Source: an uncultured Methanosarcinales archaeon
Lineage (GTDB): Archaea; Nanobdellota; Nanobdellia; Woesearchaeales; JABIAG01
DNA length: 32,000 nucleotides
Direction: 5' to 3'
Assembly (NCBI GenBank): GCA_964561995.1
Contig: CAZLQZ010000007.1
Span: 9,769-41,768, forward strand
In this document: piece after piece, positions 1,331 to 20,674 of the stretch
Position numbering within the stretch: the stretch's first letter is position 1
Layout: each line of letters begins with the position of its first letter
The notes under the pieces: model-generated
Told to the model about the DNA's origin: nothing
What the model saw: the letters and a program-made list of their open reading frames with translations, nothing else
Database searches by the model: none
Position numbers and translations under genes: made by a program

Positions 1331-1675
1331 ATGGGTGGAAAAAAGACACTTTTATGGGCTCCAAGAATAATTTCAATAATTTTTATATTGTTTATTAGTT
1401 TGTTTGCTTTGGATATTTTTACTGAAGGTTATTCTTTTTTAGAATTAATTGTGGGTTTGTTTATGCACTTAATTCCTACTTTTGTTTTAATTGGTTTAAC
1501 TGTTTTAGCGTGGAAAAAAGAAAAAATAGGTGGAATTGCTTTTTTAATTTTAGCTGTAGGATTTACTGTTTTTTTTAATACTTATAGAGAATTAATTACT
1601 TTTTTACTTATTTCTGGACCTGTTTTTTTAGTTGGAATTTTATATTTATTAAATTCTTATTTTACTCGTACCTAA
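1331..1675 (+). CDS. Integral membrane protein, about 4 TM segments, unknown function
   Basis: 114-aa ORF that is almost entirely hydrophobic helices. Its 3' end overlaps the convergent permease gene by 14 nt. Confidence 0.5.
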   Translation: MGGKKTLLWAPRIISIIFILFISLFALDIFTEGYSFLELIVGLFMHLIPTFVLIGLTVLAWKKEKIGGIAFLILAVGFTVFFNTYRELITFLLISGPVFLVGILYLLNSYFTRT

Positions 1676-5421: not shown

Positions 5422-5464
5422 TTACCTCTTTTTATATGTTTTGGTTTATTAAATTAATTTTTAT

Positions 5465-6154: not shown

Positions 6155-6356
6155 TCATTATTATTTATTAAAAGATGTTTATAAATTATTCGGATTGATT
6201 TATATCTTATTTTTAATATTGTATTACTATGGACTACATTTTAGTTTGTAGCTCCCGATGTACTATATTCGCAAGCTAATATAGCACTCATTGTTAAATG
6301 CACTTCCATAATCTTTTTAAAACCCCATTCTTTAGTTGAAATTGGAGGAGATAAAT

Positions 6357-7979
6357 ATGTCAGAAAAGAATAATCAACCAATATTTGTATTATCAGAAGA
6401 TGCTTTAAGAAACTCAGGGAGAGCTGCTCAAAAAAATAATATTGCTGCTGCTAAAATTGTAGCAGAAACAGTAAGAACAACATTAGGTCCAAAAGGTATG
6501 GATAAAATGTTAGTAAATTCAATTAATGAAGTTATAGTAACTAATGATGGTGTAACAATTTTAGAAGAAATGCAAATTGAACATCCTGCAGCTAAAATGA
6601 TTGTTGAAGTTGCTAAAACTCAAGAAGATGAAATTGGTGATGGTACAACTACTGCTGTAGTTTTTGCAGGTGAATTATTAAAACAAGCAGAATCTTTACT
6701 CGAAAAAAATATTCATCCAACTATTATTGCAAGAGGTTATAGGCAAGCTGCAGACAAAGCTCAATTTGTTCTTAATGTTATTGCTGAAAAAGCTTTACCT
6801 GAAGATCAGGACTTAATTAAGAAGATTGCAATGACTGCTATGACTGGAAAAGGTGCTGAATCTTCTAAAGAAGTTCTTTCTAATTTAGTTGTTAAAGCCG
6901 CGGCTTGTGTTTTTGATGGTGGTTTAGATAGAAAATCTATTAGAATTGAAAAAAAAATAGGAGATAGTGTTGAAGAATCTGAATTAATTAATGGTATTGT
7001 TTTAGATAAAGAAAAAGTTCATCCTTCAATGCCTGATTCAATTTCTGAAGCAAAGATTGCTTTAATTGATACTTCATTAGAAGTAAAAGATACAGAAATG
7101 GATGCTAAAATTTCTATTACTGACCCTTCACAAATGCAAGATTTTCTTGATATGGAAGAAAAAATGATTCGAAGAATGACGGATAAAGTAATTAAGTCCG
7201 GTGCAAATGTCGTTCTTTGTCAAAAAGGAATTGATGATTTAGCTCAACATTATCTTGCTAAAGAAGGAATTTATGCTTGTAGAAGAGTTAAAAAATCTGA
7301 TATGGAAGCATTATCAAAAGCGACAAGTGCTAATATAATTACTAATCTTAATGATTTAACTCAAAAAGATCTTGGAATTGCTGGTGCAGTTGAACAAGTG
7401 AAAGTTAATGATGAAGAGATGACTTATGTTAGAGATTGTGAAAATCCTAAATCTGTTACAATTTTAGTAAGAGGTGGAACAGAACATGTTATTGCTGAAG
7501 TTAAACGTGCTTTAGAAGATGCAATTGGTGATGTTTCTGCTGCTTTGAAAAATCATAAAGTTGTTGCTGGAGCTGGAAGTGTCGAAGTTGAACTTGCTAA
7601 AGAAATTAGAAAATTTGCTGAATCATTATCTGGCAGAGAACAGTTAGCAGTTAAAGCATTTGCTGAAGCATTGGATGTTATTCCTACAACTTTAGCAGAA
7701 AATGCTGGTCTTGATCCAATTGATGTTTTGACTGGATTAAAAGCAGCTCATGATGATGGTAGAAAATGGGCAGGTATTGATGTTTTTTCAGGTAAAGTAA
7801 TTGATGCTTGGGAATGTGGCATTGTTGAACCTTTGAAAATAAAAACTCAAGCTATTAGTTCAGCTACTGAAGTTGCTGTAATGATATTAAGAATTGATGA
7901 TGTTATTGCTGCAGGAAAACCTTCTCAACCTGAAGGAATGCCACCTATGGGCGGAATGCCTCATGGAATGGGAATGTAA
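6357..7979 (+). CDS. ths: Thermosome subunit (group II chaperonin)
   Basis: Contains [22 protein letters not shown] and [12 protein letters not shown] motifs and a Gly/Met-rich tail [14 protein letters not shown]. The start was moved to the ATG at 6357, 7 nt after GGAGGAG. The track start at 6336 is a TTG. Confidence 0.95.
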
Positions 7980-8708
7980 TTATTTTTTCCAAGCTGACAT
8001 AAAGAAGTCTAAATATTCTTTTGTCAAAGCTTTATTTTTTATTAAAACTGCACAAGGGCCATTCCAATTAATTAGAATTATTTTTTCTTTATATATTCCT
8101 ACGTCACCTGGAAATGAAACATTACTAAATCTTGTTTGCCAGTATTTAGAATTGATAACTTTATGATTTTTCTTAAAGGATTTTTCATTTTTTTTTGATA
8201 TTAATAGATAATCTATTATTTTTCTTTCTTTTTTTAATACTCCTGCCCATTCGTAAAATATTTTTGCATTTTTATCTGAGCTAGATTTTCCAGTTCCATA
8301 TCCATAATTTATGGAATCTGGTGTAAAGTCTGCTAGAAATTCAATATATGCCCCTCTTAATGCTTTCATTCCTTCAAACATTTTAACTTCATTTTTTGTT
8401 TCTGATTTTTTTTGTAGTATTTTCAGTTTATCAATATTATCTTCAATATTTTTCTTTTTTTCATTAAAAAGTGTTAGGATTTTTTCTGGGTCTGAAGCTT
8501 GAAAATATTTTGTTTTTATCTTAGTTATCCAACTTACTAGTTTTTTATTTTCTAATGATTCAAGAATTTCATAAATTTTAGAGTTTGGTACTGTGGATTT
8601 TTTTGATAAAGGTCCAGTTGTTGTTAAACCTAATTCTAATAATGCCAAATAAACTTTTGTTTCTCTTTTTGTCAATCCAACTTCAGATAATAATTCTTTG
8701 ACTTCCAT
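7980..8708 (-). CDS. TrmB-family transcriptional regulator (paralog 1)
   Basis: Has an N-terminal wHTH (GLTKRETKVYLALLELGLTTTGPLSKKSTVPNSKIYEILESLENKKLVSW) plus a roughly 150-aa C-terminal domain. It is divergent from a binding-protein gene, and a TTTAAATA box ends 21 nt upstream of the ATG. Confidence 0.8.
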   Translation of the reverse strand: MEVKELLSEVGLTKRETKVYLALLELGLTTTGPLSKKSTVPNSKIYEILESLENKKLVSWITKIKTKYFQASDPEKILTLFNEKKKNIEDNIDKLKILQKKSETKNEVKMFEGMKALRGAYIEFLADFTPDSINYGYGTGKSSSDKNAKIFYEWAGVLKKERKIIDYLLISKKNEKSFKKNHKVINSKYWQTRFSNVSFPGDVGIYKEKIILINWNGPCAVLIKNKALTKEYLDFFMSAWKK

Positions 8709-8744
8709 TTTATTATTAATTTTACTGAATATTTAAATGTTTTC

Positions 8745-8795
8745 AATTACTACTCCCTTTTGGGGTAATTTATCTTTATAAGTAATTGTTACTTA
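8745..8795. promoter_or_regulatory. Two inverted repeats in the divergent TrmB-1 / SBP-1 intergenic region
   Basis: AATTAC (8745-8750) N14 GTAATT (8765-8770), and TAAGTAA-TTG-TTACTTA (8779-8795). The second overlaps the likely SBP-1 TATA box (ctttataag). Confidence 0.4.
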
Positions 8796-8819
8796 CTTTA
8801 ATTAAAAGAAAAGAGGTGT

Positions 8820-9875
8820 ATGAAAATGAAAAAATTATTTTTATTATTAGCTTTAATTTTGCTTGTTGGTTGTGCAAATGAAGGATATAGAGTTGGAGTA
8901 ATAGTTCCTTTATCAGGTAGTCAAGCAGTACTTGGAAATGATTATAGGCAAGGATTGGAACTTTATGATTCGGATATTGAATATATTTTTCAAGATTCAA
9001 TGGGTGATGTAAAATCTGCTGTATCTGCTTATTATCAATTAAAGATTCAAGACGTGGATGCGATTGTTGTTGTTAGTTCTGGTGATGAAGCAATAATTGA
9101 ATTGGCAGATAAAGATGATATTCCATTATTATTAACTGGATCGTCAACTGCAAGTCTAGCTTCAAGAAGTGAGTGGGCATTTAGATATTTTACTAATGCT
9201 GATGTAGATGCAAGAATTATTGCTAATTATGCAATTGATGAATTACAATTGAAAAGTTTTGGAATACTTCATGTTGTTGATAATTACGGGTATAGTTATG
9301 CTGAAGTTTTTAAGGAAGAAGTTGAAAATAATGGCAAAAAAGTAATCGGTGTTGAATCATTTCAATATGCTGATTTTGATTATAGAACTCAGTTATTAAA
9401 GTTAAAAGATGCAGACTCAATATATATTATTGGTTTAGATTATCAAATTGCTGAAGCATTAAAAGAAATTAATGAGTTAGGTATAAATGCAAAAGTCCTT
9501 GCTTTGGGTACAATTGCAACCCAATATGGTATTAATTTATCGGAAGGAACTGCAAATGGAGTTTATACAAATGCCTTTTGTACTGATGAAATTCCTGAGT
9601 TGTATAGAACTAAATTTATGGATTATTATGGTAAAGAACCAGGTTTTTATTCGGAAATTGGTTATGATATGGCAAAATTAATTGATATTGCAAATGTTGA
9701 TGGTAAGATAACTAAAGATGAATTTGTTAATAATTTGCTTATGTTAAATAATATTGAAACTAATCTTGGTAATGTTAGTGCAATGGATGATGGTGAATTA
9801 TTTATTCCTGTTTGTACTAAAGTAATTGAAGGTAATAAAATAAAAGATGTTATTACTGGGAATTATTATGGTTAA
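8820..9875 (+). CDS. ABC substrate-binding lipoprotein, LivJ/Peripla_BP_6 family (SBP-1)
   Basis: Has a lipobox (LLVGC) followed by YRVGVIVPLSGSQAVLGNDYRQG, typical of the family. GAGGTG is at 8812-8817, so the ATG at 8826 is an equally good start. Confidence 0.85.
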   Translation: MKMKKLFLLLALILLVGCANEGYRVGVIVPLSGSQAVLGNDYRQGLELYDSDIEYIFQDSMGDVKSAVSAYYQLKIQDVDAIVVVSSGDEAIIELADKDDIPLLLTGSSTASLASRSEWAFRYFTNADVDARIIANYAIDELQLKSFGILHVVDNYGYSYAEVFKEEVENNGKKVIGVESFQYADFDYRTQLLKLKDADSIYIIGLDYQIAEALKEINELGINAKVLALGTIATQYGINLSEGTANGVYTNAFCTDEIPELYRTKFMDYYGKEPGFYSEIGYDMAKLIDIANVDGKITKDEFVNNLLMLNNIETNLGNVSAMDDGELFIPVCTKVIEGNKIKDVITGNYYG

Positions 9876-9965
9876 CATCAACAAATTTATTATTTTTTAT
9901 TGTTTTCATTTTAAAATCTTTATTTGAAACAATTCCATTTTCATCAAAACTGATTATGTTTGATG
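9853..9965 (-). pseudogene. Remnant of the 3' end of a LivJ-type binding-protein gene
   Basis: The minus-frame translation ...SGASNIISFDENGIVSNKDFKMKTIKNNKFVDV matches the C-terminus of SBP-4 (GGNLSFDENGDVKKTIFIKTIKDRKFVKIN). No N-terminal 300 aa are present. The right boundary is approximate. Confidence 0.6.
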
Positions 9966-9971
9966 CACCAC

Positions 9972-10139
9972 TATAAATATACAGAATTGGATATTCCTTC
10001 AAATATTGATCTCTATGGGGATAAAACCCTGATCTTGGCTTGGACGCCACAACCAATTGCTTTTTTAATAACTTCTAATGAAGTTACAGAAACATTTAAA
10101 CAATTATTTTATAAACTTTGGAAAAAAGCAGAAAAATAA
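9972..10139 (+). pseudogene. Remnant of the 3' end of a TrmB-family regulator gene
   Basis: Hand translation gives ...YKYTELDIPSNIDLYGDKTLILAWTPQPIAFLITSNEVTETFKQLFYKLWKKAEK*. This parallels the C-termini of the intact paralogs, for example RYVDDFAPRGINVFGDNVLIVSFEEVIPLAVIISSKAMANNFRNVFYNMWKIAKK*. There is no wHTH part. The left boundary is approximate. Confidence 0.6.
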
Positions 10140-10156
10140 TTTTTCTGCGTTTGATT

Positions 10157-11221
10157 TTATTCTAAAGTATTGGTATTTTCATCTGAAAATTGGATATTTT
10201 TAATTGGAAAATTAAATTCTCCAAATTCTTTTGGAATAATTTCTCCATTAATGCCACTAAAGTTGTTTAAATTATTCATTTTTTCAGCTGTATCAATTTG
10301 ATTGTTGCCAATTAAATTAGATAAGTCACATCCAATTGCTGAAAATTGACTGCCTTGAGAATCATATTTTGATTTGTATTCTTGATTAAAATTTAAAGCT
10401 TTAGTTCCAGATGAAAATAGGTAGGCAGAACGAGTTGTGTATACTTTTTCTAAAATGATTGGATTATTTTTATAATCGTTGTCATGCCACATCCATGCAG
10501 TAAATATTTTTGCTTCGATTCCTGATTCTTTTAGTTTAGAAATTATTTGTAAACTTTGTTTGTCATAAGCAATTACTAAAATTGAATCTACTTTATTATT
10601 TTTCAATTTAGTAATTTGAGTTGAAAAATCTAATTCTGTTGCTTGAAATGAATCTTTGTAAACTGGTATTTCATTTGATTCAAAAAACAATTGAGCGGCT
10701 TTTGCATAAGTTTGTCCAAATTCATTTTGAACATAAAAAATTCCTGCTTTAGATGCTTCATTTTTAATCATTGAATCAGCAAGAGTTTTTGCAGCATTTT
10801 CTCCATCTAAATAAAATCTAAATACTGTATCGCCTCCCCTTTTTCCAACTTCGGAAGCAGTAGTTATGGTTGTTATAACAAACTTTTTTTCATCTTTAGC
10901 AATAGGTAATATTGCCGGAACAATTGTACTTAATCCAACTATTGTTAAGTCAACATTATCTATTGAATTTAATTTGTTAAATGCACTTACTCCTTTTGAT
11001 GCGATACCTTCACAATCTTCAAAAATGTAAACTATGTTGCCAGGATTACATATTTCTAAACCTTTTTGCATTTCAGCACCCAAATAAGCTTGAGGACCAC
11101 TTAATGGCATTACAATTCCCACTTTAATTTTTCCTTCATCTTTTTGAGTTGAAAATATTGCTGTTGCTACAAATATCATTATTAATAGAATTCCTAATAT
11201 CAAATATGTTTGTTTTTTCAT
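10157..11221 (-). CDS. ABC substrate-binding protein, LivJ/Peripla_BP_6 family (SBP-2), TM-anchored
   Basis: Contains IKVGIVMPLSGPQAYLGAEMQKG. The N-terminal hydrophobic helix has no lipobox Cys. GGAAGG precedes the ATG and the gene lies 6 nt downstream of livF, which suggests an operon. Confidence 0.85.
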   Translation of the reverse strand: MKKQTYLILGILLIMIFVATAIFSTQKDEGKIKVGIVMPLSGPQAYLGAEMQKGLEICNPGNIVYIFEDCEGIASKGVSAFNKLNSIDNVDLTIVGLSTIVPAILPIAKDEKKFVITTITTASEVGKRGGDTVFRFYLDGENAAKTLADSMIKNEASKAGIFYVQNEFGQTYAKAAQLFFESNEIPVYKDSFQATELDFSTQITKLKNNKVDSILVIAYDKQSLQIISKLKESGIEAKIFTAWMWHDNDYKNNPIILEKVYTTRSAYLFSSGTKALNFNQEYKSKYDSQGSQFSAIGCDLSNLIGNNQIDTAEKMNNLNNFSGINGEIIPKEFGEFNFPIKNIQFSDENTNTLE

Positions 11222-11227
11222 TTTTAA

Positions 11228-11929
11228 TTACCTTCCGCCAAAATAAATGTTTTTTATTTTTTCATTGTTTAATATGTCTTTATTGCCTTTCAAAGCAATC
11301 TTTCCATCTTCTAAAATGTAAGTTGTGTCAGCAATACTTACTGCTTGTTTAGCATTTTGTTCAACTATTATAATTGAAACTCCTTCGTTTTTTATTTCAA
11401 TTATTTTTTGAAATATTTCTTTCATTGCTTTTGGACTTAAACCTAATGAAGGCTCATCCAGTAATAATAATTTTGGTTTTTGAATTAATGCACGAGCAAT
11501 AGCTAACATCTGTTGTTGTCCACCTGATAAAGTGTAAGCATATTGATTCTCTTTTTCTTTTAAAATTGGGAATTTTTTAAAAATTTCTTTTATGTTAGTT
11601 TTTAATAGTTCATGGTTAGTCATAACAAAAGCTCCCATTTCTAAATTTTCCTTTACTGTTAAATCTGAAAATACTTGCCTTCCTTGGGGAACAAAAGAAA
11701 TTCCTTCATAAATTAATTCATGAGTGAGTAAATTTCTAATGTTTTTATTATTAAATATTATTTCTCCAGAATAAACATCGCATAAATTAAATATACTTTT
11801 TAGTAATGTAGATTTGCCTGCACCATTAGGACCTATAATTGCAACGATTTCATTATCTGCTTCGAAATCTATTCCTTTGAGTATCTCGGACTTGTTATAA
11901 CCTGCTTTTAAGTTGGAAATCTTTAACAT
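11228..11929 (-). CDS. livF: Branched-chain amino acid type ABC transporter ATP-binding protein LivF
   Basis: 233 aa with GPNGAGKSTLLK, VPQGRQVF, LSGGQQQMLAIARAL, LLLLDEPSLGLSP and IVEQN, which is the LivF pattern. Confidence 0.88.
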   Translation of the reverse strand: MLKISNLKAGYNKSEILKGIDFEADNEIVAIIGPNGAGKSTLLKSIFNLCDVYSGEIIFNNKNIRNLLTHELIYEGISFVPQGRQVFSDLTVKENLEMGAFVMTNHELLKTNIKEIFKKFPILKEKENQYAYTLSGGQQQMLAIARALIQKPKLLLLDEPSLGLSPKAMKEIFQKIIEIKNEGVSIIIVEQNAKQAVSIADTTYILEDGKIALKGNKDILNNEKIKNIYFGGR

Positions 11930-11964
11930 AATTAATAAAATAAAAAGATGGTTAATAAATATTA

Positions 11965-13038
11965 CTAATTGCTTATAGTAACAAATTCTCCATTTTTAAT
12001 TGTTCTTATAATTGCAGTACTATTAATAACGCCCGTTTCTCCAATATTTAAAGTACCTAATGCACCTTTAAAACCTTGGATTTCAGATAACTCGTTTACT
12101 GCTTCTTCTTTTGTTTCTGCTTTTTCAAAAGCTTTCACAATTAAGTTTATAGCATCATAAGTGTTAGGTGAACCAACAACTGGGTTGTTTTCAAATTTAG
12201 CTTTGTAACTATCAACATATTCCGCTGAAGGGTCTGCTGCTTGAACATACCACATTCCTTCAAACAATTCTGGTTCTTCACTAAATTCAAATGCTTCTAT
12301 TGCAGTTAAAGGTTTATCGATGCCTTGTTCTTTTATTTGTTTAGTTAGAATTTCCAATTCAGGTGATAGTGCAAGTAATAAATAAATATCTGGTTTACTT
12401 TTTTTTGCTTTAGAAATTAATGTTTTAAAATCTTTTTCGCCAAAATTAAATTTTTGATCACTGACAATTTCAATATTTGCTTCTTCTAATTTTGGTTTTA
12501 AGTCTGCTACAATTGCTGTAGTTCCTTGTTGATTTATTTCAAAGATTGCAATTTTTTTAATATCTTTTTCAATTAATTCTTGTACAAAAACTCTATTTTC
12601 TTCATTAGGTTGAGTCCAATGGATAAAATTATAATTTCCTTTTGCAATAGTTACATCGGAACCAATTCCAATATGTATGATTTTATTTAGATTAGTTACT
12701 GGGGACACTACATTACCTGAACCTGATGAAAATGAAACAATTGCATCAACGTTATCAATATTAATTAATTTATTTGTAGCTGTTGAAGTTAATTGAGGTT
12801 CCATTCTATCATCTTCAAAGATTACTTTATATTCATATTTGGTGTTTTCTAATTGTTCTAAAGCAAGATTGACTGAATTTCTTGCCCCATTACCCATAAA
12901 TGTTAAACTTCCACTTAATGGTAGAATTACTCCAATTTTAATAAATTCTTTTTCACTTGCATTATTATTTTCTACTTTTGTACATCCAACAATTAATAGT
13001 ATTATTAACGTTAATAAGAATAGATTTTTTAGTTTCAT
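11965..13038 (-). CDS. ABC substrate-binding lipoprotein, LivJ/Peripla_BP_6 family (SBP-3)
   Basis: Has a lipobox (LIVGC) followed by IKIGVILPLSGSLTFMGNGARNS. A TATA-like tttatatatt lies about 20 nt upstream of the ATG. Confidence 0.85.
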   Translation of the reverse strand: MKLKNLFLLTLIILLIVGCTKVENNNASEKEFIKIGVILPLSGSLTFMGNGARNSVNLALEQLENTKYEYKVIFEDDRMEPQLTSTATNKLINIDNVDAIVSFSSGSGNVVSPVTNLNKIIHIGIGSDVTIAKGNYNFIHWTQPNEENRVFVQELIEKDIKKIAIFEINQQGTTAIVADLKPKLEEANIEIVSDQKFNFGEKDFKTLISKAKKSKPDIYLLLALSPELEILTKQIKEQGIDKPLTAIEAFEFSEEPELFEGMWYVQAADPSAEYVDSYKAKFENNPVVGSPNTYDAINLIVKAFEKAETKEEAVNELSEIQGFKGALGTLNIGETGVINSTAIIRTIKNGEFVTISN

Positions 13039-13098
13039 AATTGCTATTATGGGTCTTTAATATATAAAACTAATGCTATTGATTAATATGAAAATGCT

Positions 13099-13115
13099 CA
13101 GAAGGAAATCTTCTG
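13099..13115 (-). terminator. Hairpin downstream of SBP-4
   Basis: CAGAAG-gaaat-CTTCTG, followed on the minus strand by a short T run (agcattttc). It lies between the SBP-4 stop and the SBP-3 promoter. Confidence 0.3.
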
Positions 13116-13140
13116 GCACGACTAAAAGTCAAATAAAAAA

Positions 13141-14235
13141 TTAATTAATCTTAACAAATTTTCTATCTTTAATTGTTTTGATAAATATTGTTTTTTTTAC
13201 ATCTCCATTTTCATCAAAAGACAAGTTTCCTCCAGCAAGGTTGTATTCTTTATTTAAAATGTACTCCTTAACTTTTATTGGATCTTCTCCAACATGTGAA
13301 ATTGCATCGGCAATTATCATAAGAGCGTCATACGAATTAATCGCTGTTGCATCTGGGTAAGAGCCATATTTAGTTTTGTATGCATTCCTAAACTTCAAAC
13401 TTTCTTTTGTTTCAAAGTTTTCATCATAAAAATGTGGATAGAATACTCCTTTACTAATTTCGTAATGTTCTTGAATTAATGTTGCACTTTCTGTTCCAAA
13501 GCCACCCAAAATAGTAACATTTAAACCGAATTCTTTAATTTGTTTTAAAGGATTGACCATTCCAACACTACTTATAGGGATGAAAATTGCTTCGGGATTT
13601 TTTTCTTTTATCTTAATTAATTCTGTTTTTACATCTGCTTGACCTAATTGTATCTTTTGAACTTCAACAACTTTTCCTCCTAGTTCTTCAAACTTTTCAG
13701 TAAAGTAATTTGTATGTTCTGTACAAAATGATACAGTACAACTAACAATTGCAACTTTTCTTATGCCTGAGTTGTAAGTATAATCTGCCAAAGTATATGA
13801 CATGTCTTTAATTTGAGGAACAGTTCTAAAAAATAAATCGTCTTTACTTAAGGAACTTAAAGCGGCAGCAGGGCTAAAAGCTAAAACCTTTTCTTCTAAA
13901 AGTGGTACCAGTGCTTCTGTATTTCCATTCCAAGAATCTCCTATAATAAATTTAACGCCATCTAAATTATGAAGTTTATAAAATGCTGAAACTGTTAGAT
14001 CACTCTTAGTTTGACTATCTTCAACAATTAAATTTATTTTCTTTCCATTTATTCCACCTTCGGAATTAATTATTTCTTTTGCAACTTCTAATCCTTTTAC
14101 TTCTTGTTGACCAAAATATGAACCCATTCCTGTTAGAGTTCCAATAACGCCTATATCTACTGTTTTTTCTTGTTTGCAACCAACAAATACTGTACTCATC
14201 ATTATTATTAATAAAATTGTTAATATTTTTCTCAT
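13141..14235 (-). CDS. ABC substrate-binding lipoprotein, LivJ/Peripla_BP_6 family (SBP-4)
   Basis: The start was moved to the ATG at 14233-14235 (MRKILTILLIIMMSTVFVGC lipobox), which is preceded by AGGAGGAAAA. The 27-codon extension in the track begins at a TTG and covers promoter sequence. Confidence 0.85.
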   Translation of the reverse strand: MRKILTILLIIMMSTVFVGCKQEKTVDIGVIGTLTGMGSYFGQQEVKGLEVAKEIINSEGGINGKKINLIVEDSQTKSDLTVSAFYKLHNLDGVKFIIGDSWNGNTEALVPLLEEKVLAFSPAAALSSLSKDDLFFRTVPQIKDMSYTLADYTYNSGIRKVAIVSCTVSFCTEHTNYFTEKFEELGGKVVEVQKIQLGQADVKTELIKIKEKNPEAIFIPISSVGMVNPLKQIKEFGLNVTILGGFGTESATLIQEHYEISKGVFYPHFYDENFETKESLKFRNAYKTKYGSYPDATAINSYDALMIIADAISHVGEDPIKVKEYILNKEYNLAGGNLSFDENGDVKKTIFIKTIKDRKFVKIN

Positions 14236-14253
14236 TTTGTTTTTCCTCCTTTT

Positions 14254-14316
14254 ATTACTACTGCAAGGTAATGTCTTTGCATATATTATCTTTTGTTCTT
14301 CTTTTTGGGTGAACAA
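14254..14316. promoter_or_regulatory. Inverted repeats in the divergent SBP-4 / TrmB-2 intergenic region
   Basis: ATTAC (14254-14258) N9 GTAAT (14268-14272) lies in the SBP-4 leader. TTGTTC (14293-14298) N12 GAACAA (14311-14316) lies between the two TATA-like boxes. Confidence 0.4.
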
Positions 14317-14355
14317 TTGAAAAGATTTAAATATTGCATTTAATTAATTTAAGTT

Positions 14356-15090
14356 ATGGATTTACAAATACTTAGAGAAATTGGATTGACCGACTCTCAA
14401 ATACGGGTATATTTATCACTGCTTAAATTAGGAATTTCAAAATCAGGTTTGATAATTAAAGAAACTTCTCTTTCGGGGTCAGTAGTTTATAGAGCATTGG
14501 AAGATCTAATTGAGATGGGTTTAGTAAGTTTTGTTATTAAATCAAAAACTAAGTTTTTTTCAGCTACTTCTCCAAAAAATATTCTTAGATTGTGGGATGA
14601 TAAAAAAGATAAATTAAAAATGCTGTTACCTGAACTTGAATCTATTAAAAAGCAAGATTTCACTCCAAAAACAAGAATGTTTGTAGGTTGGAAAGGTGTA
14701 CAAACTGCATTTAATACTGTTTTTGACGTTTTACCAGAAGGAAGCGAATATATTGCTTTTGCAGCGGGATCTGCTAAAGAAGCACCTGAAACTACTAGAA
14801 TTTTTTTTAAGAATTATCAGAGAAAAAGAATTGAGATGAAGTATGATGTTAAACTTATTATCAATAAACAAGATGAAGAAACATTTGAGAAAAGATTTCA
14901 AGATGTTAAAAAATGGAAAATAAGGTATGTGGATGATTTTGCTCCAAGAGGTATAAACGTTTTTGGAGATAATGTTTTAATAGTATCTTTTGAAGAAGTT
15001 ATTCCTCTTGCTGTAATAATAAGCTCCAAAGCAATGGCAAATAACTTTAGAAATGTATTTTACAATATGTGGAAAATAGCAAAAAAATAA
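14356..15090 (+). CDS. TrmB-family transcriptional regulator (paralog 2)
   Basis: Contains the wHTH GLTDSQIRVYLSLLKLGISKSGLIIKETSLSGSVVYRALEDLIEMGLVSF. It has the same length and C-terminal pattern as paralogs 1 and 3. TTTAAATA ends 22 nt upstream of the ATG. Confidence 0.8.
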   Translation: MDLQILREIGLTDSQIRVYLSLLKLGISKSGLIIKETSLSGSVVYRALEDLIEMGLVSFVIKSKTKFFSATSPKNILRLWDDKKDKLKMLLPELESIKKQDFTPKTRMFVGWKGVQTAFNTVFDVLPEGSEYIAFAAGSAKEAPETTRIFFKNYQRKRIEMKYDVKLIINKQDEETFEKRFQDVKKWKIRYVDDFAPRGINVFGDNVLIVSFEEVIPLAVIISSKAMANNFRNVFYNMWKIAKK

Positions 15091-15092
15091 AA

Positions 15093-15815
15093 TCAACAAC
15101 CCAAATAAGCTTCTAATACTTTTTTATTATTTTTTATTTGTTCCGGTGTTCCTTGAGCAATAACTTTTCCTTCATCCATTACAATTACATTATCGGCAAT
15201 GTTTAAAACAAATTCCATATCATGTTCAATTATTAAAACAGTCTCACCTTTTTTTCTTAAATCTTTTAATATTCTAGATATAGAATTTCTTAGTTTAGGA
15301 TTAACACCTGCAACTGGTTCATCTAACATAAGTAACTTGTGAGGATTAATAACACTTCTTGCAATCTCAACTAATCTTTTTTGACCGTAACTTAAGTTTC
15401 TACATAATTTATTTTTATGCTCTATCATTTGAACAACTTTGAGTATTTCATTAAATTTTCTTTTAATTTTATAGCCAAATAAATTCTTCCAGAATTTTGT
15501 ATCTTCATTACTTATTGCTAATTTTAAATTTTCGTTAACGGTTAAATTTCCAAATAATCTTGCTTGTTGAAACATTCTTGAAATTCCCAAATTAGAAATT
15601 CGGTTAGTGCTTAAATTAGTTATTTCTTTTTCTTCAAGTTTAATTTTTCCTGAATCTGATTTAAGTATTCCTGATATTAAATTAAAAACCGTTGTTTTAC
15701 CTGAACCATTTGGTCCTATTAAAGCTGTAATTTTTCCTTGTTCAACTTTAAAACTGCATCCATTAACGGCTTTTACTCCACCGAAATATTTTTTTAGATT
15801 AGTTATTTTAAGCAT
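15093..15815 (-). CDS. livG: Branched-chain amino acid type ABC transporter ATP-binding protein LivG
   Basis: Contains KYFGGVKAVNGCSF, GPNGSGKTTVFNLISG, LSYGQKRLVEIARS, LMLDEPVAGVNP, IEHDM and the C-terminal EAYLG, which is the LivG pattern. The ATG overlaps the HEPN gene stop by 8 nt (ATGCTTAA). Confidence 0.88.
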   Translation of the reverse strand: MLKITNLKKYFGGVKAVNGCSFKVEQGKITALIGPNGSGKTTVFNLISGILKSDSGKIKLEEKEITNLSTNRISNLGISRMFQQARLFGNLTVNENLKLAISNEDTKFWKNLFGYKIKRKFNEILKVVQMIEHKNKLCRNLSYGQKRLVEIARSVINPHKLLMLDEPVAGVNPKLRNSISRILKDLRKKGETVLIIEHDMEFVLNIADNVIVMDEGKVIAQGTPEQIKNNKKVLEAYLGC

Positions 15816-16269
15816 AAAGTCCCTCTCTTATTTTTTTGATTTCATCATAAGTTAATAAATTTGAAATATTTTTAATTTCTAATAATAATTTTGTTAATTT
15901 ATCTAAATTAATTTCTACTGGTTTATTTTTTAAATAATATTGGTTGTCAATTCTTAATTCTTTATCTTTTTCTAAAGATTCACTAAATCCTTTTGGAAAT
16001 ATATTTAATTCTTCTAAAATAAAACATAATTTTATTGTGCATTCATGAATCTCACTTTTGATTCCTATTTTCATTAAGATTGAATAAGCAAGAAAATATT
16101 TACAATAATATTTGGTTGTTGCTAGCCACATTCTTGAATCTGATTTTATGTCTTTTAATGTTAATAATGTTTCTTCTGCACTTTCTATATACTCTTTGGC
16201 AAGATTATTATTTGGTTCTATTAATTTTATTCCTTTTTTTTGATTTTTACACCCATTTAAAGTAACCAT
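15808..16269 (-). CDS. HEPN domain protein
   Basis: A 153-aa all-helical protein (AKEYIESAEETL..., YYCKYFLAYSILMK, KELRIDNQYY) immediately downstream of, and overlapping by 13 nt, a minimal nucleotidyltransferase gene. This is the classic archaeal NTase/HEPN pairing. The family call rests on context plus weak motif recognition. Confidence 0.6.
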   Translation of the reverse strand: MVTLNGCKNQKKGIKLIEPNNNLAKEYIESAEETLLTLKDIKSDSRMWLATTKYYCKYFLAYSILMKIGIKSEIHECTIKLCFILEELNIFPKGFSESLEKDKELRIDNQYYLKNKPVEINLDKLTKLLLEIKNISNLLTYDEIKKIREGLYA

Positions 16270-16790
16270 TTGATTATTTCTTCACTCCCATTAATTATTA
16301 AATGTTTTTTGAATATTTCATTTTTTAAACTGTTATTTACTTCATTTAGTGATTTTACTTTTATTATATGTATTTTTTTGTTAATTTTTTCCTCAATATT
16401 TGTTTTATTTATTTCACTTGTTGTTAACAAATCAATATCATTAAATTTGTTTGAATTACTGGCTGAACCAAAAATTAAAGTATTTCCAATGTGGCAATTT
16501 GAAACTATTTCATTAATTATTAAATTTTTTTTACAACGTTTAATTAAAACTTCTTTTTCTATTATAGTTAAGTAATCAATAATTAATGGGTGATCTCGGT
16601 TGAGTTTAAAAAGTGTTAATCTTCCTTTAATATCTTTTATTAATAATCCTTCTTTTTCAAAAGAATTTAAATATTTTCTGACTGTTGGATGTGGTTCTTT
16701 TAATTGTCTGGATATATCTGCTAAATGTAGAAATTCTTTAGTTTGAGTGAATGGTTTTAAATATAACCATCTCGTTTCATTTTGAACCAT
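16257..16790 (-). CDS. wHTH-fused minimal nucleotidyltransferase (MNT-type)
   Basis: The C-terminal half contains LIFGSASNSNKFNDIDLL (G-S ... D-x-D pol-beta NTase signature). The N-terminal roughly 90 aa look like a winged helix (ISRQLKEPHPTVRKYLNSFEKEGLL). A TATA-like ctttatatat lies 23-34 nt upstream. Confidence 0.7.
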   Translation of the reverse strand: MVQNETRWLYLKPFTQTKEFLHLADISRQLKEPHPTVRKYLNSFEKEGLLIKDIKGRLTLFKLNRDHPLIIDYLTIIEKEVLIKRCKKNLIINEIVSNCHIGNTLIFGSASNSNKFNDIDLLTTSEINKTNIEEKINKKIHIIKVKSLNEVNNSLKNEIFKKHLIINGSEEIIKWLL

Positions 16791-16905
16791 ATTGTAACAT
16801 TATGAACCATTAAGATATATAAAGATTTTGTTTTTTAATTATTTAAAAGTCAAATTTGATTTTTATAATTCATAATTAGTAAATTAAGATAAAAAATTAA
16901 AAAAA

Positions 16906-17973
16906 TTAAATTTTACTAAATACTTTTCCCCCATTAACAATTCTAACTAATCGATAGTTTTCTTTTGGAAGTATTGGGTCGCCATTTTTATCAAAAGACC
17001 AATTTGCTACTTCTCCTTTCCATTCAATGGTTTTAAAGTAATCTTTAACACAAATTGCATCTTCATCACAATACTCAATTGCATCTTTTAACATGTACAC
17101 ACTGTCATACATTGAAGCTGTTAAAAAAAAGTGAAATTCAGGTTCTTTACCAAATTTATTAATATATTTTTCTAATAATTCTTTATTTTCCGAAAATGGA
17201 ATTATTGTGGTTGCATTTTGTGGTATATTGGCAATCTTTGTATCAATTGATGTTGGATTTCCGAGTACTTTTCCTTTAAGTCCTAATTCTTGCATTTGTT
17301 TAAAAATCATTTCTGCATTTTTAGGATTTAAAGTTGATATGAAAAACCCATCTGTATCTTTTGGAATTTTCATCAATATTGATTTAAAGTCATTGTTTTC
17401 TGTTGGGAATTTTTCATTAAGTACTATTTCTCCATTAAAAGATTCGATAAAGTAATTACTCCATGCTTCTGAAAATTCCGTTTGTTCAGTAAGGATTGCA
17501 ATTTTTTTAATTTTAGTATTCTTTGCTAAAATTATTGCTGCTTCTTTTCCAGGTGGAGAATTTCTATAAGCAAATTCATAGTCATCAAAAAATCCTTGTA
17601 TTGTTGATGTTGCTGCCATCATAAAAACTTGATTTTCATTTGCAACTGGTGCAACTGGACCTGATGCAGGAGTACAACTTGGACCTAAGATAAATTTCAC
17701 ATTGTCTTGATGAATTAATTTATTTGCTCCCGATATTGCATCTTTTCCACTGCATTTGTCATCTTCAAGAATAAATTCTATTTGTTTTCCATTAATTCCG
17801 CCTTCAGCGTTAATTTCATCTATTGCTATTTGGGCAAAATTAACTTCAGTTTGTCCGCCATATGCCCAATTACCAGTTAATGCAAATAATCCACCAACTT
17901 TAATTGTTTCATTAGGTGTACATGCGCTAAGTAATATTAGCAAACTAATTACCATTACTATCTTGTGTTTCAT
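16906..17973 (-). CDS. ABC substrate-binding lipoprotein, LivJ/Peripla_BP_6 family (SBP-5)
   Basis: Has a lipobox (LLSAC) followed by IKVGGLFALTGNWAYGGQTEVN. AGAGGTGAAAA precedes the ATG, and oligo-T runs follow the stop on the minus strand. Confidence 0.85.
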   Translation of the reverse strand: MKHKIVMVISLLILLSACTPNETIKVGGLFALTGNWAYGGQTEVNFAQIAIDEINAEGGINGKQIEFILEDDKCSGKDAISGANKLIHQDNVKFILGPSCTPASGPVAPVANENQVFMMAATSTIQGFFDDYEFAYRNSPPGKEAAIILAKNTKIKKIAILTEQTEFSEAWSNYFIESFNGEIVLNEKFPTENNDFKSILMKIPKDTDGFFISTLNPKNAEMIFKQMQELGLKGKVLGNPTSIDTKIANIPQNATTIIPFSENKELLEKYINKFGKEPEFHFFLTASMYDSVYMLKDAIEYCDEDAICVKDYFKTIEWKGEVANWSFDKNGDPILPKENYRLVRIVNGGKVFSKI

Positions 17974-17986
17974 TTTTCACCTCTTT

Positions 17987-18046
17987 ATTACTTATAAGGA
18001 ATGTCAGGGCTATATATTAAATCTTGTAGTCGGAATATAACTACAA
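17987..18046. promoter_or_regulatory. Inverted repeats in the divergent SBP-5 / TrmB-3 intergenic region
   Basis: ATTACTTATAAGGAAT (17987-18002) is an imperfect copy of the SBP-4 leader repeat. TTGTAGT (18024-18030) N9 ACTACAA (18040-18046) lies between the two TATA-like boxes. Confidence 0.4.
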
Positions 18047-18083
18047 ACAAAACATTTAAATAATTAAAGTAATTTACCCTGTT

Positions 18084-18800
18084 ATGGATGTTTACTCAGC
18101 ATTAGAAGAATTTGGATTAAATAATAGGGAAGCAAAAGTATATGTTAAGTTATTAGAATTAGGTTCAACAACAGCTTCTCAATTGGCAAAATATGTTAAT
18201 ATATTGAGACCGACAATGTATGAAGTTCTTAATGAAATGATTAAAAAAGGTGTGGTAAGTTATTCATTTTCAGGAAGAAAAAAGATTTTTCAAGCTTTAA
18301 ATCCAAAAGTTCTTACTCAAATTTTAGAAGATAAAAAAAGAATGTTGCAAGACTTTGTTCCTGAATTAGTTAATATTTCAAAGGCTAATACGTCTGAGCA
18401 AAAAGTAACGACTTTTTTTGGAGAAAAAGGACTTAAAGCAATTTATGATGACATGCTTGTAACTAATAAAGATATTTTTCATATTTTTAATTATCAAGAA
18501 TATTCAAAATTGTTTAAATTATATTGGATACAAAATTTCATTCAAAAAAGAGTTGAAAAAAAGATTTGGTTTAGGGCAGTTGTTAATAAAATTACTGATC
18601 CAGAATTAAAAAAATCTAGTAAAAAACAATTAAGAGAAATAAAATCATTAAATTTTTTGAAGGATTTTAAGATGAGTATGTTTATTTATGGTGATAAATG
18701 TGGTTTTTTTACTTTTAATGAACAACCTGTAGGGATATTAATTGAAAATCCTTTAATTAGTTCTTCTTTGAAAGTATTGTTTAATAATTTATACTCCTAA
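18084..18800 (+). CDS. TrmB-family transcriptional regulator (paralog 3)
   Basis: Contains the wHTH GLNNREAKVYVKLLELGSTTASQLAKYVNILRPTMYEVLNEMIKKGVVSY. TTTAAATA ends 21 nt upstream of the ATG. Confidence 0.8.
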   Translation: MDVYSALEEFGLNNREAKVYVKLLELGSTTASQLAKYVNILRPTMYEVLNEMIKKGVVSYSFSGRKKIFQALNPKVLTQILEDKKRMLQDFVPELVNISKANTSEQKVTTFFGEKGLKAIYDDMLVTNKDIFHIFNYQEYSKLFKLYWIQNFIQKRVEKKIWFRAVVNKITDPELKKSSKKQLREIKSLNFLKDFKMSMFIYGDKCGFFTFNEQPVGILIENPLISSSLKVLFNNLYS

Positions 18801-18823
18801 AAGTCAAGGTTATTTTTTTAGTC

Positions 18824-18866
18824 GACCTATTAAAATATTTGAATCTTTAGGTTGTAAAAATAGGTC
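18824..18866. terminator. Hairpin between convergent TrmB-3 and livM
   Basis: GACCTATT (18824-18831) and AATAGGTC (18859-18866) form 8-bp arms around a 27-nt loop. A T7 run at 18813-18819 precedes it. The right arm overlaps the livM stop. Confidence 0.3.
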
Positions 18867-19737
18867 ATTCTAGTTCTACTTTACCAAATAAACCCTTAGG
18901 CCTATATATTAGTATTAATAATAAAAGTAAAGCATAAATTATTTGTCTCATTGGTCCTATGACTGAAGATGGAAAACCAATAAATCTTAATGGTTCTGGT
19001 AATAATATTAAAATGAATGTTGCAACAACTGTTCCTTTTAATGAAGCTAATCCTGCAATTATAACAATTGATAAAACTGGTACTAAATTTAATAATGTAA
19101 ATGAAGAAGGATCGATAAAAGTAATATAATGTGCATATAAAGAACCTGCAATTCCTGCAAAAAAAGCACTAATTGCTAAAGCGTAACTTTTCATTTTCAG
19201 TGTATTTTTCCCTAAACTTTTAGCTGCCAATTCGTCATCTCGAATAGCTTCTAAAACTTTACCAAATGGAGAAGAACTAATTTTTTTAATTATAAAATAA
19301 GTGATTGCAGCAATAACAAATGTAAAAATTAAATAATTCAAATTAGATTTTAAAACAAATCCAAATAATGAAGGTTTAGGTATTCCTGGTAATCCTAATG
19401 GTCCTCTTGTTAAATTTGTCCAGTTTAATAGTACTGCATAAACTACAAAAGTAAAACCCAATGTTGCTAATGTTAGATAATCGCCTTTAAGTTTATTTAC
19501 GGGTATAGAAATTAAATAACCAAATATCATTGCCACTATTCCTGCAGATAAAAAACCAACCCAAAATGGAAAACCATTCATAACAAGTAAAGCAGAAGTA
19601 TAAGCGCCAATTCCGTAAAATGCTATATGTCCTAAATTCAATAAACCAGTAAAACCTACTGAGAGTTGTAAGGATAAAGCTAAGACTAAAAAAATTCCTA
19701 CCAGAATTAATAGGTGTATGAAATAGGCTTCTATCAA
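18865..19737 (-). CDS. livM: Branched-chain amino acid type ABC transporter permease LivM
   Basis: A 290-aa polytopic membrane protein with GLLNLGHIAFYGIGAYTSA and RDDELAAKSLGKNT motifs. It has a TTG start with AAGGTGA 5 nt upstream. Confidence 0.85.
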   Translation of the reverse strand: MIEAYFIHLLILVGIFLVLALSLQLSVGFTGLLNLGHIAFYGIGAYTSALLVMNGFPFWVGFLSAGIVAMIFGYLISIPVNKLKGDYLTLATLGFTFVVYAVLLNWTNLTRGPLGLPGIPKPSLFGFVLKSNLNYLIFTFVIAAITYFIIKKISSSPFGKVLEAIRDDELAAKSLGKNTLKMKSYALAISAFFAGIAGSLYAHYITFIDPSSFTLLNLVPVLSIVIIAGLASLKGTVVATFILILLPEPLRFIGFPSSVIGPMRQIIYALLLLLILIYRPKGLFGKVELE

Positions 19738-19792
19738 AATTTCACCTTTTTAAAATTTTGGATTTTATAAAAATTATAAATCTTTGCAAGCA

Positions 19793-20674
19793 TCATCTTT
19801 TATCACCTTTTTTTATGCCTAATATTCCTTGTGGTCTTAATAATAAAAATAAGAATAATATTATAAATGCAATTGCATCTTTATATCCTGAAGGTAACCA
19901 CCATATTCCATAATTTTCTGCAAAACCAAGTAAAAAACTTCCTAATACTGCTCCAGGTACAGATCCAATTCCACCAATTATTGCTCCAGTAAATCCTTTA
20001 ATTACAAGATTAGTTCCCATTGTTGGTTCTAAGTTTTGTTCTAAACCAATTAATATTCCTGCAACGCCTGCAATTGCTGAACCAATTACAAAACTCCAAG
20101 CATATATTCTTTCTGAACTAATTCCTACAATTTCTGCAACCTCTTTGTTGTCTGAAACAGCTCTCATTGCTTTTCCAATTTTAGTTTTTTTCATAAATAA
20201 ATATAATAGTCCTAATAAAACAAATGATGTGATTATGATAAATAATTGTAATGGGGTAATTATTGCTCCGAGAATAGTCATTCCTTTTGCAACTTTAATG
20301 TAGCCTATTGTTTTGACATCTGCTCCAAAGAAAATTAATATTATTGATTCTAAAAAGATTAATAGTGCAAAACTTGCAAGTAATAAGATTACTCTGCTTG
20401 CTTTTTTCTTTCTTAGTGGTTTGTATATAAATAAGTTCATCAAGTAACCAAGTAAAGAAACCAAAATTATGGCTAAGATTACTGAAAAAACAAAATTAAT
20501 TCCTAACATATTAAATAACCAATATAAAAAATATGCAGAAAAAGCAATGGTTGAGCCATGTGCAAAATTAGCAAATTTACAAGTTGAATAAATTAAACTA
20601 AAACCTGATGCAACTAATGCATATATCCCTCCTGCAATTAATCCGTTGACAAATAATTGTGCAAATATTCCCAT
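19793..20674 (-). CDS. livH: Branched-chain amino acid type ABC transporter permease LivH
   Basis: A 293-aa polytopic membrane protein with NGLIAGGIYALVASGFSLIY, ANFAHG, MRAVSDNKEVAEIVGI and GGIGSVPGAVLG motifs. Confidence 0.87.
   Translation of the reverse strand: MGIFAQLFVNGLIAGGIYALVASGFSLIYSTCKFANFAHGSTIAFSAYFLYWLFNMLGINFVFSVILAIILVSLLGYLMNLFIYKPLRKKKASRVILLLASFALLIFLESIILIFFGADVKTIGYIKVAKGMTILGAIITPLQLFIIITSFVLLGLLYLFMKKTKIGKAMRAVSDNKEVAEIVGISSERIYAWSFVIGSAIAGVAGILIGLEQNLEPTMGTNLVIKGFTGAIIGGIGSVPGAVLGSFLLGFAENYGIWWLPSGYKDAIAFIILFLFLLLRPQGILGIKKGDKR

Follow-up and report, generated by a model that had tools for sequence, protein, structure and literature searches.

The LivJ/LivK-LivHMGF importer of Escherichia coli, whose genes are under the control of Lrp, combines two permeases of the BPD_transp_2 family, the ATP-binding cassette (ABC) ATPases LivG and LivF, and substrate-binding proteins (SBPs) of the Peripla_BP_6 family, with more than one SBP per translocator. 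The sharing of one ABC translocator by several SBPs is an established principle ('Homes for the orphans', Thomas 2010, as cited in PMC3223731), and in Borrelia burgdorferi, whose genome is reduced and auxotrophic, five differentially regulated OppA proteins use one permease/ATPase set (PMC5736914, PMC7822543). Regulators of the TrmB family are known at ABC importer loci of sugar systems (PMC4158304), where they bind promoter palindromes and repress or activate depending on the position of the site (PMC4158304, PMC4706686); the family member TrmBL2 lacks the sugar-binding part of about 70 residues (PMC4158304). Here we describe a liv-type locus at positions 7980-20674 of a 32,000-nucleotide stretch of DNA (contig CAZLQZ010000007.1, assembly GCA_964561995.1), the whole of which is referred to below as the window. 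The locus probably encodes a HAAT-family (Liv/Urt-type, TC 3.A.1.4) ABC importer of a DPANN archaeon close to Woesearchaeota, and it contains several cassettes in which a gene for a TrmB-like regulator lies divergently to an SBP gene.

The composition of the E. coli Liv system recurs in the window, but several features set the two apart: five SBPs at 23-31% pairwise identity stand where E. coli has two close paralogs, the core genes do not form one block but alternate with those for SBPs and regulators, the SBPs are archaeal and predicted to be lipid- or transmembrane-anchored, the residues with which LivK binds the ligand backbone are mostly not kept, and the regulators are of the TrmB family. 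By analogy, the five-OppA system of B. burgdorferi would be the closest functional parallel, with five varied, separately regulated SBPs, one translocator, and a small scavenging genome (PMC5736914, PMC7822543), although it is a bacterial system of the Opp family with cluster C SBPs, responds to global pathways and not to dedicated adjacent regulators, and has two of its SBP genes on plasmids, not interleaved with the core. The likeness to TrmB and TrmBL1 of Thermococcales consists of a winged-helix regulator at an ABC importer locus, a promoter palindrome, a DNA-reading tyrosine, and likely autoregulation (PMC4158304, PMC4706686). In contrast to these proteins, the window regulators measure 238-244 aa and have no C-terminal sugar-binding subdomain, a Liv-type SBP gene is the presumed target, several cassettes occur per locus, and the palindromes are of the forms TTGTnG…CnACAA, TTGTTC-N12-GAACAA, and CTCCC-N4-GGGG, compared with TACT-N3-AGTA and TATCAC-N5-GTGATA for TrmB/TrmBL1. 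With TrmBL2 of Pyrococcus and Thermococcus (5bpd, 5box, 5bqt), they share a winged helix-turn-helix (wHTH), a coiled coil, and a phospholipase D (PLD)-like C-terminal domain. Unlike TrmBL2, to which their identity is 16-21% and whose NCBIfam model they match far under its cutoff, they occur as many divergent paralogs per genome with a palindrome of their own upstream, which suggests local, sequence-specific regulators.

Organization of the Locus

In the explanation that we consider probable, one Liv translocator works with five diverged, anchored SBPs, and the conserved core of this DPANN HAAT locus is accompanied by exchangeable cassettes of a TrmBL2-like regulator gene and an SBP gene. The Pfam analysis identified five Peripla_BP_6 SBPs, three TrmB-domain proteins of 238-244 aa, and a single LivH, LivM, LivG, and LivF between 7980 and 20674, in agreement with a first-pass annotation made from the sequence (Table 1). 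Three of the SBP genes are arranged head-to-head with a regulator gene, at distances of 111 bp (TrmB1/SBP1), 120 bp (SBP4/TrmB2), and 110 bp (SBP5/TrmB3), and livF is bracketed by SBP3 and SBP2 with gaps of 35 and 6 bp, respectively; both arrangements, with regulators of roughly 240 aa, had been described in that annotation. Its proposal that the receptors are separately regulated is compatible with the gene arrangement for SBP1, SBP4, and SBP5, each of which has a dedicated regulator gene, but not for SBP3 and SBP2, which have none. Further livHMGF sets beyond the window, named there as a finding that would speak against a shared translocator, did not appear: no more liv genes were detected in the rest of the window, nor within about 10 kb to the right and about 9 kb to the left of its edges, and over this span the ratio of SBP genes to translocator sets is 5:1. 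The ABC system located upstream, at 1662-6154 (-), is of the MacB/FtsX type and not Liv.

Core and Cassettes in Related Loci

A LivM scan using one genome per species returned 396 relatives, of which the best 80 loci (LivM 54-79% identical) were annotated with hidden Markov models (HMMs) built from the window proteins; the starts of SBP and regulator genes in the relatives were derived from the HMM alignments, and the record titles are unreliable for many of the metagenome-assembled genomes (MAGs). Within these 80 loci, LivH, LivM, LivG, and LivF were never present more than once each, and no assembly supplied two LivM loci, whereas the number of SBP genes ranged from 0 to 8 (at least five in 11 loci) and that of TrmB-like genes from 0 to 6. 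Divergent pairing with an SBP gene was found for 56 of the 70 TrmB-like genes. Core genes were interleaved with SBP or TrmB-like genes in 28 of 66 loci, while other relatives, Methanolobus included, retain a plain S-H-M-G-F operon. The modular, shared-core design put forward in the first-pass annotation finds support in this invariably single core and the varying complement of SBP and regulator genes around it; the other parts of that design, ligand specificity and docking, we infer.

On a 762-kb Woesearchaeota contig (L002/L012), the locus has the same flanks (thermosome and MacB-type ABC genes) and comprises seven SBPs and at least five regulators with one core. The core proteins are 68-78% identical between the window and this contig, and orthologs (47-62%) exist there for only two of the five SBPs (SBP1 and SBP4) and two of the three regulators (TrmB1 and TrmB2). 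Clustering indicated that regulator and SBP families mostly co-occur, as in T5-S7 (3/3 cases), T4-S2 (three cases), and T2-S1 (six cases); SBP5 of the window belongs to S1, the biggest cluster among the SBPs of related loci. The overall picture is one of a conserved core and of receptor/regulator cassettes that turn over.

Substrate-Binding Proteins

All five SBPs matched PF13458 with E values from 1.8e-28 to 2.4e-49, as expected of cluster B SBPs, and all are full-length proteins with a signal or anchor sequence and without added domains. Lipobox-like L/I/F-x-G/A-C motifs were matched at residues 15-20 of SBP1, SBP3, SBP4, and SBP5 (LVGC, IVGC, FVGC, and LSAC), and SBP2 has a hydrophobic N-terminus without a lipobox cysteine. 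The first-pass annotation was correct as to the number of lipobox proteins, four, and had taken the N-terminus of SBP2 for an uncleaved transmembrane anchor. Its start for SBP4, a TTG at 14316, was replaced: the most likely start is the ATG at 14235, and the resulting length of 364 aa agrees with an independent gene call in locus L001.

The pairwise identities, 23-31% among the SBPs and 25-34% among the regulators, exclude recent amplification and assembly error, and the five SBPs are old paralogs; the near-identity that had been named as the sign of amplification or artefact was not observed. The SBPs are likewise distant from characterized proteins. The NCBIfam LivJ model gave 39-109 bits against a cutoff of 477, which places them outside the LivJ/LivK equivalogs, and all NCBIfam SBP matches (LivJ, UrtA) were far under cutoff, with the Liv and Urt models scoring about alike. 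The PDB relatives include amino-acid binders (3td9, 4gnr, LivJ/K, and 3ipc) together with binders of amides, urea, and aromatic compounds or aromatic acids. When aligned with LivK, 4gnr, and 3ipc (about 25% identity, so that the columns are uncertain), only SBP3 has an acidic residue at the position of LivK Glu226. The other backbone-binding positions (LivK Ser79, Ala/Gly100-Ala101-Thr102, and Tyr202) vary across the SBPs, which at this level of identity is indicative, and the pocket positions of all five differ from those of LivK, 4gnr, and 3ipc. Ligand assignment from curated models, PDB relatives, and pocket mapping thus revealed divergence and yielded no ligand. Among experimentally screened COG0683 proteins, few bind leucine, isoleucine, or valine (PMC3223731). 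A separate ligand specificity for each SBP is plausible in view of their sequences.

TrmB-like Regulators

In the three regulators, Pfam recognised only the N-terminal winged-helix domain PF01978, and the sugar-binding domain PF11495 was not matched in any of them. The position aligned to Tyr50 of TrmB (3qph), a DNA-reading tyrosine, is Tyr46 here and does not vary among 42 family members, as is typical of the TrmB family. A profile made from these 42 sequences covers TrmBL2 (5bpd/5box/5bqt) end to end (E 1.4e-10) and matches TrmB 3qph over the N-terminal ~110 residues only, that is, the wHTH and the start of the helix. The AlphaFold model of TrmB3 (pLDDT in Table 1) is composed of a wHTH, a long helix at residues 74-101, and an alpha/beta C-terminal domain; the helix corresponds to the predicted coiled-coil dimerisation helix, and the profile spans this element in TrmBL2. 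A Foldseek search with the model returned full-length TrmBL2 as the top PDB matches (E 1.5e-14), with TrmB next; for the C-terminal domain, a match to the PLD-like Zucchini fold was seen as well.

Sugar-sensing TrmB/TrmBL1 proper (~340 aa) was considered and rejected as an identity for these proteins on account of their length, the missing PF11495, and the ~110 residues of 3qph that could be aligned. Because the alignment extends over the full length of TrmBL2, which has no sugar-binding part, the regulators are TrmB-family members with TrmBL2 architecture and without the known sugar sensor. For the same reason, the contrast with sugar systems drawn in the first-pass annotation carries less weight. 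Orthology to TrmBL2 was rejected on sequence, the NCBIfam model NF041141 giving 30 bits against a cutoff of 530, though fold and architecture match.

The regulator family yielded 131 matches, with many members in DPANN genomes, and within Woesearchaeota it looks like a general group of local regulators that has expanded and is not specific to liv. Paralogs of the same family adjoin unrelated genes in L003, in L005 (10001-15754), and in L002 (18598-20308), where the regulator gene is divergent from a methyltransferase gene. The 281 bp that separate SBP1 from SBP2 contain a remnant of a further regulator gene, at 9975-10139. When compared with TrmB-like proteins, its peptide aligns exactly to their C-termini with 41-50% identity (E 1e-12 to 1e-14), which indicates that the locus would once have had at least four regulators.

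Divergent Spacers and Candidate Operators

We oriented 59 divergent regulator/SBP spacers alike (median 111 bp) and used the 51 of them with a length of ≤170 bp for repeat statistics; visual inspection or simple statistics served to assign transcription units and archaeal promoter elements. The common layout consists of two divergent TATA-like boxes with an inverted repeat in between: one of the boxes, a conserved block, is found 23-30 nt from the regulator ATG, implying an apparently leaderless regulator mRNA, and the other is oriented towards the SBP gene. The mean best inverted-repeat score of the 51 spacers was 7.60, compared with 6.24±0.16 in dinucleotide shuffles. Inverted repeats of the type TGT…ACA (arms >=5) were present in 19 of the 51, compared with 2.65±1.6 in shuffles (maximum 9 in 300), and were mostly centred 40-51 nt from the regulator ATG.

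The three palindromes of the window (Table 1) are mutually different, and each was found only at its own cassette, with no additional copies at 0 mismatches at other window promoters, where they would have pointed to regulation of the core as well. The core CTCCC-N4-GGGGTAA of the TrmB1/SBP1 palindrome is kept in the orthologous spacers at L018:16227 and L012:19492, and a sequence similar to TTGTTC-N12-GAACAA occurs in the TrmB2-ortholog spacers at L018:14311-14437 and L012:17501-17725, so that the orthologous cassettes of both loci retain their own palindrome and the remainder of the spacer drifts. Regulator family T3, in turn, retains TGTCG-N6-CGACAGC in four genomes. The palindrome arms abut or overlap both transcription factor B recognition element (BRE)/TATA elements. 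Such palindromes are what would be expected of sequence-specific dimeric regulators acting on both divergent promoters, and their cassette specificity argues for specific DNA binding by the regulators.

Two side observations concern these elements. The only near intergenic match, a 2-mismatch copy of the TrmB3-cassette palindrome (TTGTATT-N7-ACTACAT), precedes the thermosome gene at 6219-6239 and is probably due to chance. TrmB2 together with its operator and promoter is kept in L012 and L018, but is joined there to an S3 and not to an S5 SBP, and this regulator-plus-promoter module therefore appears to have been re-paired with another receptor gene.

Loci in Bacteria of the Candidate Phyla Radiation

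Some of the related loci, from bacteria of the candidate phyla radiation (CPR), are genuinely bacterial: L037 (JABIGQ010000024.1, 6041-11453) carries MurB and a MraY-like gene, and L014 (JAUSHZ010000008.1, 3534-15239) carries TrmD. Their LivM proteins are 72-76% identical to the archaeal LivM of the window, and divergent TrmB-like/SBP pairs are present in both. The spacer of L037 contains near-consensus sigma-70 promoters (TTGACA-17-TATAAT and TTGACA-17-TATAGT) on opposite strands, facing both genes; the sigma-70 scanner was run on bacterial L037 only and is not applicable to archaeal spacers. These findings suggest that the module was transferred between DPANN archaea and CPR bacteria.

Translocator Core, Transcription Units, and Flanking Genes

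The two BPD_transp_2 permeases are of the LivH and LivM types, as in the HAAT family; their top NCBIfam models are LivH/UrtB and LivM/UrtC, yet under cutoff. The two ATPases are distinct (33% identical) and also conform to the HAAT pattern, LivG carrying a BCA_ABC_TP_C tail and LivF having ABC_tran only; the best NCBIfam matches of LivF were UrtE and LivF, both under cutoff. Of the two small genes inserted between SBP5 and livG, the first encodes a 177-aa protein with a wHTH and a nucleotidyltransferase-like GSxxxx…DxD motif (GSASNSNKFNDIDLL). The second, encoding 153 aa, had no family match in Pfam or NCBIfam and only a weak PDB match to the HEPN-like AF0298/UPF0332 (2hsb, E 0.59). The two are possibly a toxin-antitoxin pair of the MNT/HEPN type. 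The start of livG overlaps the 3' end of the 153-aa gene by 8 nt, and the two may therefore be co-transcribed. As read from the sequence, SBP1, SBP4, and SBP5 are each followed by an oligo-T tract, and a TATA-like box lies ahead of SBP3 and of the 177-aa gene. SBP1, SBP4, and SBP5 would accordingly be monocistronic and regulated; SBP3-LivF-SBP2 appears to form a separate unit with its own promoter and no regulator attached, and the small-gene pair with LivG, as well as LivH-LivM, appear to have promoters of their own.

Table 1. Features of the liv locus, with window positions, strand, and supporting evidence.
Feature	Position	Strand	Evidence and remarks
TrmB1, TrmBL2-like architecture, 242 aa	7980..8708	-	PF01978 E 1e-15; 59% ortholog in L002, 78% ortholog P0002
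TrmB1<>SBP1 divergent promoter region	8709..8819	.	Candidate operator TACTCCC-TTTT-GGGGTAA at 8751-8768
SBP1, predicted lipoprotein, 351 aa, lipobox LVGC	8820..9875	+	PF13458 E 1.8e-28; 56% ortholog SBPa in L002
Remnant of a fourth TrmB-like gene, last ~51 codons and stop	9975..10139	+	tblastn with TrmB2 residues 190-244, E 2e-7
SBP2, 354 aa, hydrophobic N-terminus without Cys	10157..11221	-	PF13458 E 2.6e-29; 6 bp downstream of livF
LivF-type ATPase, 233 aa	11228..11929	-	ABC_tran E 2.7e-32; 74% identical to L002 LivF
SBP3, predicted lipoprotein, 357 aa	11965..13038	-	PF13458 E 7.3e-39
Spacer after SBP4	13039..13140	-	T-rich tract, hairpin, then TATA-like box TTTTATATATTAAAG ~25 nt upstream of SBP3 ATG
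SBP4, predicted lipoprotein, 364 aa	13141..14235	-	PF13458 E 2.4e-49; best PDB relative 3td9
SBP4<>TrmB2 divergent promoter region	14236..14355	.	Candidate operator TTGTTC-N12-GAACAA at 14293-14316
TrmB2, TrmBL2-like, 244 aa	14356..15090	+	PF01978 E 1.9e-10; 62% ortholog TrmB_b in L002
LivG-type ATPase, 240 aa	15093..15815	-	ABC_tran E 1.4e-33; BCA_ABC_TP_C (PF12399) E 4.2e-10
Two overlapping small genes (177 aa, 153 aa) between SBP5 and livG	15808..16790	-	HTH_IclR E 9.8e-5 (177 aa)
SBP5, predicted lipoprotein, 355 aa	16906..17973	-	PF13458 E 1.9e-39; best PDB relative 4gnr
SBP5<>TrmB3 divergent promoter region	17974..18083	.	Perfect palindrome TTGTAGT-N9-ACTACAA at 18024-18046, between two TATA-like boxes
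TrmB3, TrmBL2-like, 238 aa	18084..18800	+	PF01978 E 2.1e-16; AlphaFold pLDDT 88.7
LivM-type permease, 290 aa	18865..19737	-	BPD_transp_2 (PF02653) E 1.1e-46
LivH-type permease, 293 aa	19793..20674	-	BPD_transp_2 (PF02653) E 2.7e-39

The window, with a G+C content of about 27%, encodes a thermosome (6336-7979) and, further along, L37ae, Pcc1, and prefoldin, and is therefore archaeal. Named homologs of its proteins come mostly from MAGs of Woesearchaeota, Nanoarchaeota, and other DPANN archaea, and an identical sequence is present in the independently assembled Logan assembly of SRR8526173. The MacB/FtsX-type system is composed of an ATPase, a CARDB-like 445-aa protein, and two MacB_PCD/FtsX permeases; together with the thermosome gene it flanks the liv locus and is syntenic in a Woesearchaeota relative (L002 12970-17447). 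Neither tRNA genes nor Rfam RNA matches were found in the window.

Discussion

According to the mechanism that we propose, one LivH-LivM-LivG-LivF translocator would serve five anciently diverged, membrane-anchored SBPs by docking. In each cassette, the TrmBL2-like regulator gene and the divergent SBP gene would have in common a control region of ~110 bp, in which a cassette-specific palindrome lies between two back-to-back TATA/BRE promoters. The regulator, predicted to combine a wHTH bearing the DNA-reading tyrosine, a coiled-coil dimerisation helix, and a PLD-like C-terminal domain, would most likely bind its own palindrome as a dimer and control its own gene as well as the adjacent SBP gene. 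Since both BREs adjoin or are overlapped by the arms of the palindrome, repression by steric exclusion of TBP/TFB is slightly favoured over activation. The core and two default receptors (SBP3 and SBP2) would be expressed independently, with SBP1, SBP4, and SBP5 switched individually. We infer the regulator-operator binding, the direction of regulation, an effector, the unit boundaries, the SBP ligands, and the docking of all five SBPs. The locus may also have the central role in nutrient scavenging that the first-pass annotation suggested.

Several points weigh against this reading. About 60% of the spacers are without TGT…ACA repeats and have other palindromes or no obvious one. The pairing of TrmB2 (T6) with SBP4 (S5) in the window represents a family swap, T6 being paired elsewhere with S3 and S5 with T10; the regulator is therefore not strictly bound to one SBP type. 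Most residues that contact the amino-acid backbone in LivK, 4gnr, and 3ipc are not kept in the SBPs, whose substrates may therefore not be amino acids. TrmBL2, the closest solved relative of the regulators, is a chromatin protein that binds DNA largely without sequence specificity (PMC4158304, PMC4877046). The count of one translocator applies only to the window plus roughly 10 kb of flank at either edge, and the roles of the locus proteins in binding, expression, and transport are predictions from their sequences.

Other explanations were weighed against these data. Some of the SBPs might use translocators encoded elsewhere, or more LivHMGF sets might exist, in which case the 5:1 ratio would hold for the window alone. 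The inspected span of the window plus ~9-10 kb per side is compatible with this, as is the frequency in bacteria of orphan SBPs encoded apart from their transporter (PMC3223731, citing Thomas 2010), but we regard it as unlikely: SBP3 and SBP2 lie immediately next to livF, the SBPs cluster around one H/M/G/F set in the 80 loci with no assembly contributing two LivM loci to these 80, and DPANN archaea have small genomes that encode few transporters (PMC8359207). Somewhat more doubtful is the idea that the TrmB-like proteins are general chromatin proteins or global repressors like TrmBL2, next to SBP genes by coincidence. TrmBL2 is indeed the closest solved structure and gave the sole full-length alignment, it coats DNA non-specifically (PMC4158304, PMC4877046), and members of the same family adjoin unrelated genes in L003 and L005. 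Nevertheless, many divergent paralogs per genome (25-34%) are not what one conserved, abundant protein would look like, the score for the TrmBL2 equivalog is a small fraction of its cutoff, at liv loci most TrmB genes have an SBP gene as their divergent neighbour, and palindromes specific to the cassette are overrepresented at a fixed position and kept in orthologous cassettes.

It has also to be considered whether certain SBPs act as sensors or adhesins at the cell surface, for instance in host-cell contact, each under its own regulator. SBP-fold domains serve as receptors in other systems, DPANN archaea are host-dependent, GABA-B receptor domains are among the PDB matches, and four of the five SBPs lack the acidic residue that binds the alpha-amino group of the ligand in LivK, 4gnr, and 3ipc. 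Such a role nonetheless seems very improbable for full-length cluster B SBPs with a signal or anchor and no added domains, whose genes are interleaved with those of the translocator and whose relatives grade down to the canonical S-H-M-G-F operon; moreover, many COG0683 SBPs without branched-chain amino acid binding are still transporter SBPs (PMC3223731). As for recent duplication or an assembly artefact as the source of the repeated SBP and TrmB genes, nothing beyond the repeated domain types speaks for it, and paralog identities of 23-34%, the independent Logan assembly, and the syntenic loci in relatives led us to reject it, leaving it practically no credence.

A bolder reading is conceivable, which we advance tentatively and do not regard as the likelier outcome: regulator, operator, and SBP could form a portable cassette that is gained, lost, swapped, and re-paired around the Liv translocator and that has moved between DPANN archaea and CPR bacteria with domain-appropriate promoters, and the regulators could sense substrate or transporter activity by a mechanism new to the TrmB family. 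The new mechanism is proposed because the regulators are without any known effector subdomain.

The literature on TrmB with Woesearchaeota or branched-chain ABC systems, and on DPANN branched-chain transporters, was searched, and the pairing was not found described, which is weak evidence given the incomplete coverage. Apparently new in combination, insofar as we could not find it described, are the divergent TrmBL2-like/Liv-SBP cassette, the cassette-specific operators, and their interleaving in a split DPANN liv core. The locus is not surprising in principle; its regulator-operator-receptor triplets are unusually concrete.

To our knowledge, almost nothing has been established experimentally about gene regulation and nutrient uptake in DPANN archaea, whose small genomes are usually described as transporter-poor. 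The locus offers concrete regulator-operator pairs, three in the window and dozens in relatives, with distinct palindromes and a fixed promoter position. If the regulators prove specific, the TrmB family would extend beyond sugar control, and proteins of TrmBL2 architecture could act as local regulators. The ligands of the diverged receptors would reveal what host-dependent cells import. By the addition of receptor-plus-regulator cassettes to a single translocator, the substrate range would be widened cheaply, and portable cassettes, if that bolder reading is true, would let ultra-small cells alter their imports without duplicating membrane machinery.

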